A stretch of 64,000 bases of DNA from Candidatus Moraniibacteriota bacterium (lineage in GTDB: Bacteria > Patescibacteriota > Minisyncoccia > Moranbacterales > UBA9337). Under the pieces are notes generated by a model, which saw nothing but the letters and a program-made list of their open reading frames with translations, searched no databases and was not told the DNA's origin. Made by a program: the position numbers and the translations under genes. This document shows positions 236 to 42,692 of this stretch, piece after piece. How positions within the stretch are numbered: the first letter of the stretch is position 1; the number at the start of each line of letters is the position of its first letter. The stretch is taken from NCBI GenBank assembly GCA_029865125.1, contig JAOUHN010000001.1, positions 1,360-65,359 on the forward strand, read 5' to 3'.

Positions 236-400
236 GTTCATGTTTCATGTTATACGCTTTATGTTATATGTTTCATGCTATATGTTTCATGTTATACGCT
301 TTATGTTATATGTTTCATGTTACGTGTTTCATGTCGTGTGTTTCATGCTTCATATTTCATGCTCCATGCTCCATGTTCCATGCATTATATATTTCCCGAT
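236..400. repeat. Heptanucleotide tandem array (ATGYTHY)n, about 24 units
   Basis: ATGTTTC ATGTTAT ACGCTTT ATGTTAT ATGTTTC ATGCTAT ... ATGCTCC ATGCTCC ATGTTCC. The period is 7, so it cannot be coding. The 222-431 ORF is an artefact of this repeat. Confidence 0.85.
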
Positions 401-484
401 ATCTTTCTCATATGTTAAAATAAAAAAATGAAAGCCTCCCTCTTGTGAGGATTACTTCGTTTAAGAAATAAACACAAAAACAAA

Positions 485-1447
485 ATGGGAAAAGTCTTAG
501 AAAGACAAAGGGTTAGAAAAACAAAATTGAGCGTAAACTCAATCATAGCGCTCACACTCGCACTATCATCAATTGCAATTATTGGAAATCTGATCTATGA
601 AAAAAACAAAAGTTTTCAAGAAGCTGAGGAATGTGATCAGGAGCTCCAAGAGAAAATCAAAGAAGATTTTGAAGAAAATGCCGTCACAGACATTCAAACC
701 ATTCAAAGTCAAATCAATATGGATGATTGGAAAAATTATCAAACATCTTGGTATGGATTCAAAATACAATACCCTTCCACATGGAAAAACCCTGTTCCAA
801 GAAGCGCTGACAGATATTCACTTGCGGAATATTATTATGAATTTCGGAGTCCTTTGGACAATCCCGGACTATACAGCGGATTTGATGTTGTTGTGTACAA
901 CGTCTCAAAAGTTGAAGAACTTTCCAATACAAATGAATTTCCAAAACTGAAAGATCCCGAAACAACCGAATCAACGTGTCAAACGCTCGATGGACACCTG
1001 CTAGAAACAGGAGAATATCCCGCCGAAGAAATCTACATCCCTTCGATCAATAGATGCTACAACCCTGTTTTGTTTTTCAGTGTCACAAAAGGAGATTACA
1101 TATTCAACATCGTTCCTAAAACAAAAGCTAATGTTGAACCTTCAGGTGACCCAATGAAGGAAATTTCCGATAGTATCCCTGAATTCTTTGCAGCTATTTC
1201 CACATTTGAAAACATCGACATCGTACGAGTAGCCAAACGTTCCACAGCTACCATAAAGTCGCCAAGGCCTGTTTCATACAAACTAGACTCACTTGGACGT
1301 TTTGTGTGTGAAAAGAAAAACGACAAACCCGGAAAAAGCAAAAAAGGGAAAGGGAAGCATCTTGATATGGAATGTTGTCTCGATCCAGATGAATACGCAA
1401 ATCCACATTGTTATTATGATCCAGAGAAATACGGAAAATATCTTTAA
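485..1447 (+). CDS. Hypothetical membrane-anchored protein (N-terminal TM helix, Lys/Cys-rich C-terminus)
   Basis: 320-aa ORF with ATG at 485. Hydrophobic segment SIIALTLALSSIAIIGNLIY. No recognisable catalytic motif. Confidence 0.6.
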   Translation: MGKVLERQRVRKTKLSVNSIIALTLALSSIAIIGNLIYEKNKSFQEAEECDQELQEKIKEDFEENAVTDIQTIQSQINMDDWKNYQTSWYGFKIQYPSTWKNPVPRSADRYSLAEYYYEFRSPLDNPGLYSGFDVVVYNVSKVEELSNTNEFPKLKDPETTESTCQTLDGHLLETGEYPAEEIYIPSINRCYNPVLFFSVTKGDYIFNIVPKTKANVEPSGDPMKEISDSIPEFFAAISTFENIDIVRVAKRSTATIKSPRPVSYKLDSLGRFVCEKKNDKPGKSKKGKGKHLDMECCLDPDEYANPHCYYDPEKYGKYL

Positions 1448-1495
1448 AACACTGGACAAAAGACTTGAAAGGCTATACACTGGCACTAATTAAAT

Positions 1496-2488
1496 GTGCA
1501 ATCAATGAGAAAAAATCTCATCAAAAATATTCAAAATTTTGCCTTTCAGCATGAACTTTGGAACAAAAATTCAAAAATCCTTGTTGGGGTTTCAGGCGGG
1601 CCGGACAGCGTGTGTCTTTTGAGTGTGCTTGTAACTCTTCAAAAAAAATATAATTTCAAAATTCACGTTGCTCATGTGAACTATGGACTGCGAAAAAAAG
1701 ATTCTGATGTTGATGAAAATTTTGTGAAACTTCTTTGCGAAAAAAATAATCTTGATTTCACTATTCTCAATGTCTCAAAAAAAGAGCTGGGAAACAATCC
1801 ATCTGAAAACAAAATGAGAGACGTTCGATATAATTTTTTTGAAAAAACCAGAAGACAGCTTGAATTCAATCTTATTGCTGTTGCTCACAATCAAGATGAT
1901 CAAGCAGAAACAATGCTCATGAGAATCATCCGCGGATCCGGGCTTCAAGGACTCAGAGCAATTCAACCGAAATTAGGGGTCATTATCCGCCCTCTGCTGG
2001 AAACTAGCAGAAAAGACATTGTGGCCTATCTCAAGCAAGAAAAGCTGTCCTATCGCATCGACAAAACAAACAAGGAGTCCGTTTTTCTTCGAAACAAAAT
2101 TCGAAACAAACTCATCCCCTATCTTGAAAAAAACTATAACCCCAAAATCAAACAAACCCTGTCTTCAAACGCATCCATCATCTCATGTGATTATGATGCG
2201 CTTTCCAAAAGCGCTCAAAAAAAGTTGCCCTCAATTTCATTTGAACTATCCAAAAAAAATGTCGCTTCTTTTGATTGTCAAAAATTCAATCAACTTCACA
2301 TTGCTTTTCAGCGACAAATTTTGAGAATTATTATTGAAACGCTAAAAAGTGATCTTAAAAAAATTGAAAATAGACACATCGAAGAGATCATCAAAATTTC
2401 AAAAAGCACCAAAAAGAAAAGTCAATTGGCCGATTTCAAAGGGTTGAAAATTAAGCGAAAGGGTGCTAAAATCTATATGAAAGTTTAA
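1496..2488 (+). CDS. tilS: tRNA(Ile)-lysidine synthetase TilS
   Basis: PP-loop motif GVSGGPDSVCLL (SGGxDS) near the N-terminus; about 330 aa. GTG at 1496, with an alternative ATG at 1505. Confidence 0.85.
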   Translation: MQSMRKNLIKNIQNFAFQHELWNKNSKILVGVSGGPDSVCLLSVLVTLQKKYNFKIHVAHVNYGLRKKDSDVDENFVKLLCEKNNLDFTILNVSKKELGNNPSENKMRDVRYNFFEKTRRQLEFNLIAVAHNQDDQAETMLMRIIRGSGLQGLRAIQPKLGVIIRPLLETSRKDIVAYLKQEKLSYRIDKTNKESVFLRNKIRNKLIPYLEKNYNPKIKQTLSSNASIISCDYDALSKSAQKKLPSISFELSKKNVASFDCQKFNQLHIAFQRQILRIIIETLKSDLKKIENRHIEEIIKISKSTKKKSQLADFKGLKIKRKGAKIYMKV

Positions 2489-2599
2489 AAATTTTAATTA
2501 TAATCATTTTTAAATATTAAAACTTTGAAAAAATAAAAAGGCACCTTGAGATGCTCGATTGTTTTCATGTCTTAATATTTTCATGATTTCATTTACACC

Positions 2600-40725: not shown

Positions 40726-40894
40726 TTATTTTTGTTTTTATTTTTATCTCTCGCTAATATCACCCGTTCAATTTTTTCATGCTATGTTATGAAAATATTA
40801 TACCACAATTTTATTTAAAAACATAACACAAAAAAATCCCTTGCTAGCAAGCAAGGGATTTTTTGTTTTCCATTTTCTTTTTTAGATCTCAAGA

Positions 40895-42550
40895 CTACAT
40901 CATTCCTGGCATTCCCATTCCCCCCATAGTTGGACCAGTAGAACATCCACAAGAACTTTCTTCTTTTTTGTCCGTCACCACAGCAACTGTTGTCAAAAGA
41001 AGAGCTGCCACAGAAACAGCATTCTCAATAGCAGTTCGAGTCACCTTCAAAGGATCAATGATTCCTGACTTGATCATATCTTCTTCAAAAGCATCGGTTT
41101 TTGCATTATATCCATATCTCACACCTTTTCCTTCGATAACTTGGTTCAAAACCACCGCAGCTTCTCTTGTTCCTGCATTGGAAACAATTTGCTTCAATGG
41201 TTCGTTCAACGCCTTTAACAAAATATCAAACCCGGCTTGATATTCATGATCTGCTTCATCTCTTTTCATAGAGTTAAGCTTGAAAACAGCTTTAGCTAAT
41301 GCAGTTCCACCACCAGCAACGATTCCTTCTTCAATAGCTGCGCGTGTTGCAGCCAACGCATCATCCATTTTGTGTCTCAAATATGTCTGTTCTGTTTCAG
41401 TTGCAGAGCCAACTCGAATCACGGCCACTCCTCCGGAAATTTTTGCAACTCTCTTTTGAAGTTTTTCGCGATCATAGTCACTGTCGCATTTCTCAATTTG
41501 AGCCTTAATTTGGTTTATTCTGGCAACAATAGCTGCTTTTTTTCCTTTTCCTCCTACAATAGTAGTATCATCTTTAGTTGAAATAATCTTTGAAGCCTCT
41601 CCCAAAACATCAAGCTCTGCACTTTCAAGTTTCATTCCTCTTTCTTCGCTAATCACCTGAGCGCCAACCAAAATCGCAATGTCTTCAAGTGTAGCCTTTT
41701 TTGCATCTCCAAATTCAGGTGCCTTAATTGCTAACACATTAAGTACTCCTCGAAGCTTGTTGAGAACCAAGGTTGCAAGAGCTTCACCTTCGATATCTTC
41801 CGCAATGATTACCAACTCTTTCTTTCCTGATTGAGTTAATTTTTCTAAAATTGGCAAGATTTCGTTCATTGAAGCAATTTTTTTGTCAGTGATGAGAACT
41901 GATGCTTCTTTGATTTCGGCAATTTGCTCACTTGCCTTAGTGACCATATATGGAGAAATGTAGCCTTTTCCAAATTTCATTCCTTCTACAATTTCGCTTG
42001 ATAACCCAAAAGTTTGAGATTCTTCCACTGTAATCACCCCGTCTTTTCCAACTTTCTCCATGGCTTCAGCAATCATATTTCCCATTTCTTCAGATTCAGC
42101 AGAAATAGTTGCGACTTGTGCAACTTCTTCTTTTGAGCTGATTTTTTTTGAATTCTTTTTAAGAATCTTGATCACCTCATTCTTTGCATCCTCCATTCCT
42201 CTTCGAATTCCCATTGGATTAATTCCTGTTTCGATATATTTCAATCCCTCTCTAGCCAGTGCTTGCGTAATAACAGTTGATGTTGTTGTTCCGTCTCCTG
42301 CCGCATCATTAGTTCTTTCTGCAACTTCCTTAATCAAACTAGCTCCAATATTTTCGAATTTATCCTCTAATTCAATTTCTTTTGCAATGCTCACACCATC
42401 ATTAGTGATTACTGGAGAACCAAATCCTTTGTCTAAAATAACATTTCTTCCCTTTGGTCCAATTGTTCCTTTCACCGCATCAGCCACCTTGTCAATTCCT
42501 GCTTTTATTTTTGATCTAGCATCTACACCATATTTGATTTCTTTTGCCAT
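40895..42550 (-). CDS. groL: Chaperonin GroEL
   Basis: 551 aa with [12 protein letters not shown] and a C-terminal GGM repeat. Confidence 0.97.
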
Positions 42551-42588
42551 ATTTTTATATTTAGTTAATTGGTTATCTTTTCTTTACT

Positions 42589-42615
42589 TTAGCACTCTTG
42601 CTTTCCAAGTGCTAA
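42589..42615 (-). promoter_or_regulatory. CIRCE element (HrcA operator), TTAGCACTT-N9-GAGTGCTAA on the groEL strand
   Basis: Reverse strand reads TTAGCACTT GGAAAGCAA GAGTGCTAA, 38 nt upstream of the groEL start. Confidence 0.85.
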
Positions 42616-42660
42616 TTCATATTATTAAATTTTATTTTTCTCGTCAAGAAGGCTCTGGAA

Positions 42661-42692
42661 ACATGAAGCATAGAGCATAAAACATGGAACAC
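42661..42692. repeat. Heptanucleotide array (reverse orientation)
   Basis: ACATGAAGCATAGAGCATAAAACATGGAACAC. Confidence 0.55.

Follow-up and report, generated by a model that had tools for sequence, protein, structure and literature searches.

A probable lineage-specific family of degenerate RTGYTNY heptanucleotide arrays in the non-coding DNA of a Candidatus Moraniibacteriota bacterium

The window analyzed here is a 64-kb stretch of DNA from Candidatus Moraniibacteriota bacterium, in which the pnp, groEL, ksgA, and cmk genes, two tRNA genes, and a gene for an RRM protein are found. Between 0.2 and 42.7 kb, units of 7 nt with the consensus RTGYTNY (typically ATGTTTC, ATGTTAT, or ATGCTCC) are repeated head to tail at nine intergenic sites, in both orientations, as read from the sequence and recovered by a position-weight scan (Table 1). 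The scan gives 3 to 21 phased units per site, with at least four contiguous gap-free 7-bp units at seven of the nine sites, and found no array from 42.7 kb to the window end. For these arrays, Tandem Repeats Finder gives 0% indels and periods of 7, 14, 21, and 42, and the units are degenerate (64-92% matches between units). Thirteen unit types are common to more than one array, and A1 contains an internal higher-order duplication of 42 nt (2.3 copies, 92% matches, 0% indels). The unit includes a CATG palindrome, and a second heptad family, TTTGAGA, is also present in the window.

Table 1. Heptad arrays of the window and one doubtful site.
Feature	Positions	Strand	Content	Recognized by
A1	240-386	+	21 contiguous heptads: ATGTTTC, ATGTTAT, ACGCTTT, ATGCTCC, and others	Position-weight scan, Tandem Repeats Finder
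A2	9430-9513	+	12 heptads	Position-weight scan, Tandem Repeats Finder
A8	15703-15723	-	3 heptads: GTGTTTC ATGTTTT ATATTAT	Position-weight scan
A3	20524-20572	-	7 heptads	Position-weight scan
A4	21158-21192	+	4 heptads (21158-21185) and terminal GTGACTA	Position-weight scan
A5	23751-23785	-	4 heptads (23758-23785) and terminal GTGACTC	Position-weight scan
A6 left arm	29596-29623	-	4 heptads	Position-weight scan
A6 right arm	29636-29670	+	TTGTTCT ATGTTTC ATGAGAT GTGTTTC ATGAATA; inverted relative to left arm	
A7	42658-42692	-	5 heptads	Position-weight scan
Doubtful site	40773-40826	none	ATGCT ATGTT ATGA at 5-nt spacing; 30 nt on, AAAACAT AACACAA	

The dispersed tandem heptads described by a first-pass annotation of this DNA are therefore borne out by the sequence, by Tandem Repeats Finder, and by the scan, and so are all but one of the sites that it listed; it missed A8, and the approximately 24 units that it counted at the first site become 21. 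The exception, at about 40770-40800, was rejected as a heptad array: it has 5-nt spacing and two reverse units, the scan did not recover it, and it is related to the family by motif only. A CRISPR array was also considered and rejected, since the window units are 7 nt long and contiguous. CRISPR arrays consist of 24-48 nt repeats with unique spacers between them.

The arrays adjoin several kinds of signal. A1 begins 17 nt past the terminator of cmk, in which a hairpin (201-215) is followed by a T-run to 223, and the array stops ~100 nt ahead of an ORF at 485-1447. A2 fills the convergent, promoterless ksgA/UbiA gap from the ksgA stop codon (9516-9518, minus strand) to a bidirectional terminator (9391-9417), and the ksgA mRNA carries it as (RNRGCAT)n in its 3' UTR. 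A3 lies between the RRM-gene terminator (20585-20603) and the pnp promoter (-35 20512-20507, -10 20489-20484), and A4, which is 64 nt upstream of the promoter of the RRM gene (-35 at 21094), borders directly on the minus-strand stop codon (21193-21195) of the gene for S-adenosylhomocysteine hydrolase. A5 is flanked by a divergent pair of promoters, with the -35 element at 23746 on the minus strand and at 23801 on the plus strand. The gap to the -35 element is 11 nt for A3 (pnp), 11 nt for A5 (pfkB-kinase), and 10 nt for A7 (groEL), below which the groEL promoter (-35 TTGACG 42647-42642, -10 TAATAT 42624-42619) is followed by a CIRCE operator. The inverted pair A6, its arms separated by an A/T run, occupies the promoterless spacer between tRNA-Met (29519-29593) and tRNA-Asp (29676-29750), beginning 3 nt after the former and stopping 5 nt before the latter. 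A8 is in sense orientation to the UPF0102 gene, whose called start (15691) lies 12 nt downstream; none of the other eight window sites is close to a start codon in this orientation. Stop codons are thus adjoined by A2 and A4, and intrinsic terminators lie within ~20 nt of A1, A2, and A3, in agreement with the first-pass annotation, which had put the sites, in both orientations, in promoter regions, 3'/3' convergent gaps, and tRNA spacers, often beside terminator hairpins. Because most window arrays lie upstream of a -35 element or downstream of a terminator, they are probably poorly transcribed. Each array is unidirectional, and both orientations occur relative to transcription (19 co-oriented with and 26 opposite to neighboring genes). 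Arrays of the window follow the rule of pointing to the nearer gene, but in other Patescibacteria loci this rule is weak (19 vs. 11).

The window arrays are a real and strictly non-coding family. All of them lie outside ORFs, which cover 81% of the window, and by our own arithmetic the chance of such placement is 0.19^8, or ~2e-6; the first-pass argument that a 7-nt period excludes coding holds. The motif also exceeds expectation: chains of at least three ATG at 7-nt steps number 6, compared with 0.28 in Markov shuffles, and the 64-kb window has 7 arrays of at least four units where unrelated control contigs totaling 970 kb have 1, making RTGYTNY arrays ~100 times denser in the window than in control DNA. 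The arrays are identical in the NCBI-derived window, the ENA assembly, and the Logan contigs, and are therefore not assembly artefacts.

No array length variation was found among these three assemblies, which may sample a single population, whereas a perfect 9-mer repeat neighboring the arrays does vary between them. Of the first-pass suggestion of a hypermutable simple-sequence family, "simple-sequence" can be kept but "hypermutable" cannot, given the degenerate units and the identity of the assemblies. These observations bear on the idea of contingency loci, in which a hypermutable unit number would switch or grade the expression of neighboring genes as at the Haemophilus hmw promoters. Several arrays are promoter-proximal, and ATGTTTC is one base from the hmw unit ATCTTTC (PMC12721329). 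However, the hmw repeats have near-perfect units whose number varies among close genomes, and neither property was found here, in assemblies that may be one population; degeneracy suppresses slippage, sites upstream of the -35 element leave promoter spacing unchanged whatever their unit number, and the neighbors are housekeeping genes (pnp, groEL, ksgA, tRNAs). We regard contingency loci as highly improbable.

Within RTGYTNY, T2, G3, and T5 are near-invariant, R1, Y4, and Y7 are conserved as classes, and position 6 is free (0.2 bit). This profile was obtained independently from A1, with 2, 2, 1, 7, 2, 10, and 9 mismatches at positions 1-7, and from the remaining arrays, with 11, 5, 3, 16, 4, 23, and 19. 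The 7-nt phase is strict and without indels in the window arrays. The array ends are conserved as TTGTTYC...RTGA, the terminal RTGA being present in 35 of 61 arrays; in inverted pairs the outer ends TCAT...ATGA and inner ends AACAA...TTGTT are conserved, and the spacers between the arms are unrelated. Judging from the near-invariant and class-restricted positions, the free position 6, and the indel-free phase, the arrays are probably read heptad by heptad, to which (ATGTTTC)4, identical upstream of rpsT in two Moranbacteria only 75% identical overall, may be added. The profile could partly reflect the method by which arrays were recognized or the amplification of a few founder units, and arrays also occur where no promoter exists (the ksgA/UbiA gap and the tRNA spacer), which counts against read-out.

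Comparison with relatives indicates turnover. In the closest relatives compared (syntenic loci L202-L204, PNPase 77-85% identical), no RTGYTNY arrays were found. L203 keeps the RRM-gene terminator and the pnp promoter TTGAC(A/T)-17-TATAGT with 11 nt between them, and the same spacer in the window consists of 11 nt plus the 49-nt array A3, which is thus extra DNA relative to L203. Because these relatives keep the terminators and promoters but have no arrays, the window arrays are sequence added to free spacers in this lineage specifically, and any function is dispensable or lineage-specific. The hairpin terminators, likewise conserved in array-less relatives, are separate from the arrays; a termination-associated element, as the first-pass annotation had it, therefore stands only as adjacency to terminators. 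Absence from orthologous spacers without length polymorphism, which it had named as speaking against its reading, is in part what is observed. Elsewhere, the same degenerate unit occurs in at least 15 other Patescibacteria MAGs, and RTGYTNY-type arrays are found in other Moranbacteria and in Saccharibacteria, distributed patchily over related genomes. Between L021 and L117, a stop-to-start spacer of 13 nt differs by 62 nt, the clean presence or absence of a 4+4 inverted pair, and there is no target-site duplication at this indel.

Such turnover brings to mind a miniature mobile element of the REPIN/MITE type, with heptad arrays as its arms, spread to new spacers by a putative transposase. The patchy distribution, the clean L021/L117 indel, the conserved outer and inner ends of the pairs, and a 22-nt exact string of the second heptad family shared by non-orthologous spacers of the window and L203 are consistent with it. 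The arms, however, vary from 3 to 21 units, whereas REP, REPIN, and MITE elements are of fixed length; the window arrays are mostly solo, the inter-arm spacers are unrelated, L021/L117 lacks a target-site duplication, and among the window genes none for a transposase or a RAYT-like protein was found. A mobile element is accordingly very unlikely.

Period 7 is itself common. In the control contigs it is the dominant tandem repeat (56 of 113 arrays), at 58 per Mb vs. 8.5 per Mb for periods 5, 6, 8, and 9, and these arrays have many unrelated unit sequences, are 75% intergenic, and have inverted partners in 39% of cases, the arms of such pairs co-varying. The motif was thus called "unusual" with some overstatement: period 7 belongs to a described class (PMC4679880, PMC4692102, PMC2700814). 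It is quite possible that the arrays are neutral or selfish simple-sequence DNA without function, 7-nt slippage being favored by replication or repair, as Mrazek proposed. Arrays would then build up in any unconstrained sequence, with selection cutting them back solely where they reach a promoter, a terminator, or a coding end, and such a wholly neutral origin is almost as probable as the heptad-reading account. The period-7 excess with its unrelated units, the array-less orthologous spacers with all flanking signals kept, the L021/L117 polymorphism, the presence of arrays in every type of non-coding context, the internal duplication of A1, and the analogous GGGAATC repeats without a regulatory role (PMC4692102) argue for this origin. 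It leaves unexplained the same unit with the same conserved positions at nine spacers and in the other Patescibacteria MAGs, the conserved ends, the missing indels despite a saturated position 6, and the identical (ATGTTTC)4 in such distant genomes.

If the arrays are read, this could also occur on RNA. A sense (AUGYUNY)n would be an unstructured U-rich leader on which ribosomes, or a chaperone of RNA such as S1, the RRM protein, or a cold-shock-like protein, are loaded without a Shine-Dalgarno site, while antisense arrays would sit in 3' UTRs and inverted pairs would form long hairpins terminating, processing, or stabilizing transcripts. Actually, arrays lie in the 5' UTRs directly before groES and groEL in L066 (Patescibacteria); in other Patescibacteria loci 16 of 84 arrays are in sense orientation no more than 30 nt from a gene start, of the 18 arrays no more than 40 nt from the start, 7 lie at a distance divisible by 7, and in rpsT, among other genes, the heptad unit that follows in phase serves as the start codon. 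The arrays contain AUG in all frames and no stops, often end in RTGA, and in A8 lie just before a start codon; the arms of inverted pairs show compensatory change across species (L137 vs. L140), and the TAACTGA repeats offer a parallel (PMC4679880). Against these points, most window arrays are probably poorly transcribed, both orientations occur relative to neighboring genes, single strands of the arrays, including the tRNA-spacer pair A6, show no folding-energy excess over shuffles (z -1.6 to +0.5), and with Rfam covariance models only the tRNAs reach gathering scores, the arrays matching no family. We consider an RNA-level element unlikely.

The orientations, the sites upstream of promoters and downstream of terminators, and the lack of folding excess favor read-out on DNA over RNA. 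In the account that we prefer, replication slippage or unequal exchange would grow the arrays until constrained sequence is met, template switching possibly yielding the inverted partners, and a sequence-specific factor would probably read them heptad by heptad. The likeliest reader would be a small protein binding cooperatively to at least four contiguous heptads of duplex DNA, as omega/ParB or ToxR/ToxT/H-NS do; by coating the arrays it would demarcate or insulate the borders of transcription units, and it could modulate an adjacent promoter. We have little doubt that the window arrays are a lineage-specific degenerate family of the bacterial heptameric SSR/STRR-like class, and a slippage-type origin is likely, although slippage leaves the shared unit at separate loci unexplained. 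Protein read-out on DNA, the least certain step of the account, is possible but doubtful, and the account as a whole (class, slippage growth, and heptad-reading factor) we rate somewhat short of an even chance. A binding array, suggested by the first-pass annotation, stays plausible with the position-specific profile in its favor, but no candidate binder emerged: Pfam scans of ~40 window proteins gave only the RRM protein and a YbaB/EbfC homolog, with no ribbon-helix-helix, cold-shock, or ToxR-like protein among them.

A more general, and improbable, extension is a bacterial boundary code in which the unit of each lineage would co-evolve with a reader of its own, either a protein that recognizes heptads or an RNA chaperone whose footprint is 7 nt. 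If so, arrays, often as compensatory inverted pairs, would mark the ends of transcription units and replace conventional regulators missing from streamlined Patescibacteria, and RTGYTNY and TTTGAGA would be two codes in one window. It would explain the dominance of period 7, the sharing of units within a genome, the fixed positions 2, 3, and 5, and the free position 6.

Among known systems, the window family is a local example of the common heptamer-repeat class rather than a new kind of element. This class, with no settled function in its precedents (PMC4679880, PMC4692102, PMC2700814), includes the heptameric long simple-sequence repeats (Mrazek, 2007; heptamer excess, as related in PMC4679880) and the cyanobacterial STRR heptanucleotides, as described for Calothrix and Nostoc (PMC4692102). 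The likeness lies in tandem, head-to-tail units of 7 nt, in genomes that each carry one or a few families of them scattered over many sites (here one family at nine sites in 43 kb), a strong non-coding bias, and a sporadic phylogenetic distribution with turnover between relatives. The unit RTGYTNY with its CATG palindrome is new, however, the host phylum is Patescibacteria, and unlike the long, near-perfect STRR the window arrays are short and degenerate with conserved ends. The GGGAATC (Xanthomonas) and GGGGAYT (Nostoc) repeats, for which no regulatory role was found (PMC4692102), are also intergenic heptamers near the ends of ORFs, at times arranged as inverted pairs where genes converge, and their length and sequence vary among close relatives, a likeness to the window arrays; they are G-rich and quadruplex-forming with four units preferred (PMC4692102), whereas RTGYTNY units cannot form G4. 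The TAACTGA repeats of marine Beggiatoaceae, patchy across phyla, are 2-6 sense units directly upstream of start codons, where they replace the Shine-Dalgarno site (PMC4679880). A8 and the Patescibacteria loci L021, L066, L072, L086, and L111 resemble them, but most arrays of the window are away from start codons and, in either orientation, precede a promoter, follow a stop codon, or occupy a tRNA spacer. At hmw1A/hmw2A of Haemophilus influenzae, the number of 7-bp repeats in the promoter/5' UTR tunes expression (PMC12721329), and these repeats are perfect and variable between isolates, in contrast to window arrays that are degenerate and invariant in the assemblies at hand. REP/REPIN elements likewise occur as inverted pairs scattered over intergenic DNA at gene ends, present in one relative and absent from another, although REPs are hairpins of fixed length that are linked to a RAYT transposase (PMC3116915) and the window arms are tandem arrays of variable length. 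The models for read-out are the parS site of pSM19035, where at least four gap-free heptads in either orientation form a platform for omega/ParB (PMC9499535), and the cholera toxin (ctx) promoter, where TTTTGAT heptads are bound by ToxR/ToxT/H-NS (10.1101/2021.05.14.444153). Both are single loci with a cognate protein, and omega sites are of mixed orientation, whereas the window arrays are each unidirectional and dispersed over many chromosomal loci; they serve as models by analogy, not as classes to which we assign the arrays, in sharing contiguous gap-free 7-bp units, at least four in number, direct or inverted, just upstream of promoters.

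The period-7 arrays that the first-pass annotation had reported in the window were confirmed by reading of the sequence and by Tandem Repeats Finder (TRF), both of which show head-to-tail 7-nt units at the reported sites, and by a position-weight matrix that was built from the first array (A1) and run over both strands to give the RTGYTNY arrays A1-A8 listed below. The scan shortened A1, claimed as about 24 units at 236-400, to 21 units, added a site (A8), and placed no RTGYTNY array past 42.7 kb on either strand; the site claimed at about 40770-40800 shows ATG recurring every 5 nt and is no heptad array. 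The settings were borne out, namely promoter regions, a convergent gap, the space between tRNA genes, and the sides of terminators, in both orientations. The gap to the -35 hexamer is 11, 11, and 10 nt for the three promoter-proximal arrays.

RTGYTNY arrays and other period-7 features of the window, with inverted pairs of control metagenome loci (L137-L166)
Feature	Position	Strand	Units	Setting
A1	240-386	+	21	After cmk terminator (hairpin 201-215)
A2	9430-9513	+	12	Convergent gap, ksgA stop codon to bidirectional terminator 9391-9417
A8	15703-15723	-	3	12 nt ahead of start codon
A3	20524-20572	-	7	RRM-gene terminator (20585-20603) to pnp promoter
A4	21158-21185	+	4	Abuts hydrolase stop codon
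A5	23758-23785	-	4	Flanked by two divergent promoters
A6	29596-29623	-	4	tRNA-Met/tRNA-Asp gap
A6, inverted partner	29636-29670	+		tRNA-Met/tRNA-Asp gap
A7	42658-42692	-	5	Upstream of groEL promoter and CIRCE operator
TCTCAAA/TTTGAGA	24210-24238, 24931-24959			Identical 29-mers flanking ORF 24233-24952
TCTCAAA/TTTGAGA	44739-44773			Upstream of ybaB
TCTCAAA/TTTGAGA	53697-53727, 53840-53870			Inverted pair upstream of rpsO; 31-nt arms, 81% complementary, 112 nt apart
CTTT(T/C)GA run	14585-14621			Within ORF 14317-14829
ATTACNG run	22660-22697			pfkB/hydrolase spacer
AAATTTA / GAAAATT runs	43924-43981; 44887-44917			Around ybaB gene
Control pair, L137	11402-11514			
Control pair, L140	11390-11500			
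Control pair, L142	11392-11488			
Control pairs, L166	14745-14812; 19346-19419			
Control pair, L153	19081-19178			

Every RTGYTNY array lies outside the ORFs, although these make up 81% of the window, and the motif is well above expectation: there are 6 chains of at least three ATG at 7-nt steps against 0.28 expected in shuffles, and 7 arrays of at least four units in 64 kb against 1 in 970 kb of unrelated control contigs (non-syntenic metagenome contigs with distant hydrolase homologues, at most 76% identical). Because the array sequence is the same in the window, the ENA assembly, and the Logan contigs, the arrays are not assembly artefacts. The RTGYTNY family is real, lineage-specific, and strictly non-coding; a coding or peptide repeat was rejected on the period of 7, the position outside ORFs, and the variable length. 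A general lag-7 periodicity of intergenic DNA was rejected likewise, since the signal was gone after the arrays were masked and must come from these discrete arrays. The ATGYTNY strand is stop-free and has ATG in all three frames because of the unit sequence itself, and start-codon calling is misled by such ATG-rich arrays, as with two mechanically called ORF starts (15739 and 24952). Breaks between Logan contigs fall at short repeats.

Patescibacteria have highly streamlined genomes of ~1 Mb with very few recognisable regulators. The family occupies ~450 nt of the 64-kb window, or ~4% of its non-coding DNA, among ordinary housekeeping genes (pnp, groEL, ksgA, ychF, and those for S-adenosylhomocysteine hydrolase, a pfkB kinase, an RRM protein, and tRNAs), and so much of one family in a streamlined genome means that either a strong mutational drive or use must retain the arrays. 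An NCBI protein labelled 'Candidatus Moranbacteria bacterium' has the same sequence as the window's PNPase (100% identity). The stretch 54000-62000 has a G+C content of 43-46% (vs. ~37%) and is free of heptad arrays of either family (RTGYTNY or TCTCAAA/TTTGAGA).

The unit profile, computed separately for A1 (21 units) and for the other arrays (39 units), agrees between the two sets: position 1 is A or, more rarely, G, positions 2, 3, and 5 are T, G, and T, positions 4 and 7 are C/T, and any base occurs at position 6 (0.2 bit). Mismatches to the consensus number 2, 2, 1, 7, 2, 10, and 9 over the seven positions in A1 and 11, 5, 3, 16, 4, 23, and 19 in the other arrays, and these departures are mainly transitions (79 vs. 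35), while TRF found 0% indels. Thirteen unit types occur in at least two arrays each. A1 also contains a higher-order repeat of 42 nt whose copies are 92% identical (TRF), which shows a recent multi-unit duplication, and the arrays probably grew via slippage or unequal exchange. A degenerate motif common to the arrays, with some positions fixed, position 6 free, and indels absent, would be hard to obtain from the neutral decay of arrays that arose independently, which favours a factor reading heptad by heptad; because the arrays lie in both orientations and several fall outside likely transcripts, a duplex-DNA binder would be the most economical single reader. No such binder was identified among the ~40 window proteins scanned. 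Small nucleic-acid-binding proteins encoded here that could be considered are the RRM protein (20642-20920), YbaB (44899-45177), HU, and S1, the last with its gene just beyond the left edge of the window. As the reader, YbaB/EbfC is no more than a candidate: its published site, GTnAC (PMC2665219), fits the ATGTTAC units of some Patescibacteria and here only 2 of ~60 units. A purely neutral origin of the arrays is almost as likely as a reader, although it leaves the shared unit sequence and the conserved ends described below unexplained.

Three contigs with a PNPase 77-85% identical to that of the window (L202-L204) were compared with it; gene order (pfkB, hydrolase, RRM, pnp ... ksgA, UbiA) is kept in two of them, and none of the three carries an RTGYTNY array, an absence that, by the first-pass annotation's own test, speaks in part against it. 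In the RRM-pnp spacer, aligned by eye with L203, the terminator and the promoter TTGAC(A/T)-17-TATAGT are conserved, and the distance from the terminator T-run to the -35 is 11 nt in L203 and a 49-nt array plus 11 nt in the window. A3 is therefore additional, lineage-specific sequence in an unoccupied slot, and the signals on either side do not rely on it. L021 and L117, from two further Moranbacteria with 75% identity over 5 kb, differ cleanly by 62 nt: a 4+4-unit inverted pair is present in one and missing from the other, in a stop-to-start spacer of otherwise 13 nt, with no target duplication at this difference, while (ATGTTTC)4 directly upstream of rpsT is identical in both (L021 4377-4414, L117 6377-6414) in a spacer 94% identical. 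Turnover is thus the rule, yet at least one array is conserved. In the rpsT spacer, ATGACTT (in L117, ATAACTT) separates (ATGTTTC)4 from the rpsT start codon, which is in phase; a (CGTATTC)3 run is present there too.

The first-pass annotation had also suggested a hypermutable simple-sequence family, and hypermutability is not supported: the units are degenerate, and no array length variant was found among the three assemblies (window, ENA, Logan), which likewise speaks against classical phase variation. The other part, a simple-sequence family, stands. The heptads fill free spacer DNA, end at constrained sequence, duplicate internally, and turn over between relatives, and being non-coding as well, they belong in the known heptameric simple-sequence or STRR-like class. 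A near-perfect 9-nt tandem repeat (ACTTTACGG / ACTTTATGG, 8.9 copies, 42777-42856, from the ychF stop to the groEL upstream region), only 85 nt from a heptad array, is variable where the heptad arrays are not: the ENA assembly, from the same population, has it 18 nt (two units) shorter, and one Logan contig stops inside it.

An exact-pattern scan of species-representative genomes returned at least 119 stretches, so that the taxon counts describe a sample rather than a full census. Among the matches listed, ~40 stretches are from Patescibacteria, several Moranbacteria MAGs having multiple ones, ~13 are from four Herpetosiphon genomes, and the remainder are from Bacteroidota and others; viral contigs gave, among the matches listed, generic heptamer repeats, including those of giant-virus MAGs. 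Patescibacteria arrays start with TTGTTYC, and RTGA comes next in 35 of 61 cases; non-Patescibacteria arrays do not show these ends. At several loci the array runs on in phase into the gene's ATG, and the TGA of the terminal ATGA is then in frame, 3 nt ahead of the start codon. In another Patescibacteria locus (L066), arrays lie within the 5' UTRs of groES and groEL, while in the window they lie upstream of the promoter, so that position relative to the transcription start is not conserved between lineages; for the subset of arrays in leaders, a role at the RNA level is a good alternative to a duplex-DNA binder. A common layout among the matches listed is (GAAACAT)n, an A/T-rich spacer of 5-60 nt, and (ATGTTTC)n, and for such inverted pairs hairpin formation is another good alternative. 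As for solo arrays, a structured RNA or DNA hairpin was rejected (single-strand folding z -1.6 to +0.5 vs. shuffles), and an Rfam search matched only tRNAs.

A restriction-site decoy or methylation sponge is without support, because outside the arrays CATG has an observed/expected ratio of 0.86, as other 4-mer palindromes do, and so is not avoided. Orientation showed no bias relative to co-directional genes (19 vs. 26), and a tendency to point to the nearer gene (19 vs. 11 in Patescibacteria, 22 vs. 20 elsewhere) was not significant, both on crude gene calls.

Several other elements were noted. The window's groEL lacks an adjacent groES (L066 has a groES-groEL operon) and carries a CIRCE (HrcA) operator, TTAGCACT-N9-AGTGCTAA, at 42589-42615 directly downstream of its promoter. 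The pnp 5' leader contains, at ~20355-20375, one and a half heptad units (TTTCATGTTTCAA), which are conserved in the pnp leaders of the window and L202-L204, array-free relatives included, and apparently form one arm of a hairpin in the leader. A palindromic MITE-like element at 34360-34565 has terminal inverted repeats CTTGTCATTCCGGA...TCCGGAATGACAAG, and related copies in L203 (6220-6390 and 7690-7730) are flanked by heptad arrays. About 800 nt at 15785-16584 hold no ORF, include a 67-nt T-rich run (16086-16152), and gave no Rfam match even at an E-value of 1; the equivalent gap in relatives has A-rich runs (L203 14317-14366, L202 14264-14313, L204 9499-9545).

The motif had been called unusual, a view that the control contigs do not bear out as to its period. 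In their TRF census, period 7 was by far the commonest (56 of the 113 arrays with at least 3 copies), at 58 per Mb vs. 8.5 per Mb for periods 5, 6, 8, and 9; the window has 172 period-7 arrays per Mb. Control unit sequences are numerous and unrelated to each other, 75% of these arrays lie between genes, and for 39% an inverted partner is found within 150 nt, typically as an array and its reverse complement, with a spacer separating them, between a stop codon and the next start codon. L137 and L140 have flanks 89% identical and differ in both arms, with AATTGAC in place of AATTGAG on the left and GTCAATT in place of CTCAATT on the right, a concerted, compensatory change. The second heptad family of the window, TCTCAAA/TTTGAGA, occupies four sites and has a 22-nt exact string in common with L203 arrays (7630-7651) in a non-orthologous spacer.

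The RTGYTNY family is a test case for two old questions, the predominance of heptamers among bacterial simple-sequence repeats and the spread of a single unit through a genome, as it offers a sharp position profile, conserved ends, presence or absence against syntenic relatives, and defined neighbours, namely terminators and the promoters of pnp, groEL, and pfkB. Should the arrays serve as protein platforms, a so far unrecognised global DNA-binding protein would be expected in Patescibacteria.

An excess of heptanucleotide repeats in prokaryotes, and the idea of ~7 nt as a slippage-prone length, are attributed to Mrazek et al. (2007) in later papers (PMC4679880; PMC4692102). Heptamer families that are specific to a genome and occupy tens to hundreds of intergenic sites have been reported from cyanobacteria (STRR), Beggiatoaceae, Xanthomonas, Nostoc, and Geobacter metallireducens (PMC4679880; PMC4692102; PMC2700814), so that the class itself is not unusual. 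What is new is that this class now extends to Patescibacteria, a phylum for which the literature searched held nothing specific on heptamer repeats. TAACTGA of Beggiatoaceae lies chiefly just upstream of start codons (PMC4679880), and GGGAATC of Xanthomonas and GGGGAYT of Nostoc include inverted pairs and vary among close relatives; no role in regulation was found for them (PMC4692102). Single-locus heptad arrays have known functions at the ctx promoter (10.1101/2021.05.14.444153) and in the phase-variable hmw repeats (PMC12721329), and at parS of pSM19035 a ribbon-helix-helix protein binds at least four gap-free heptads in either orientation (PMC9499535).
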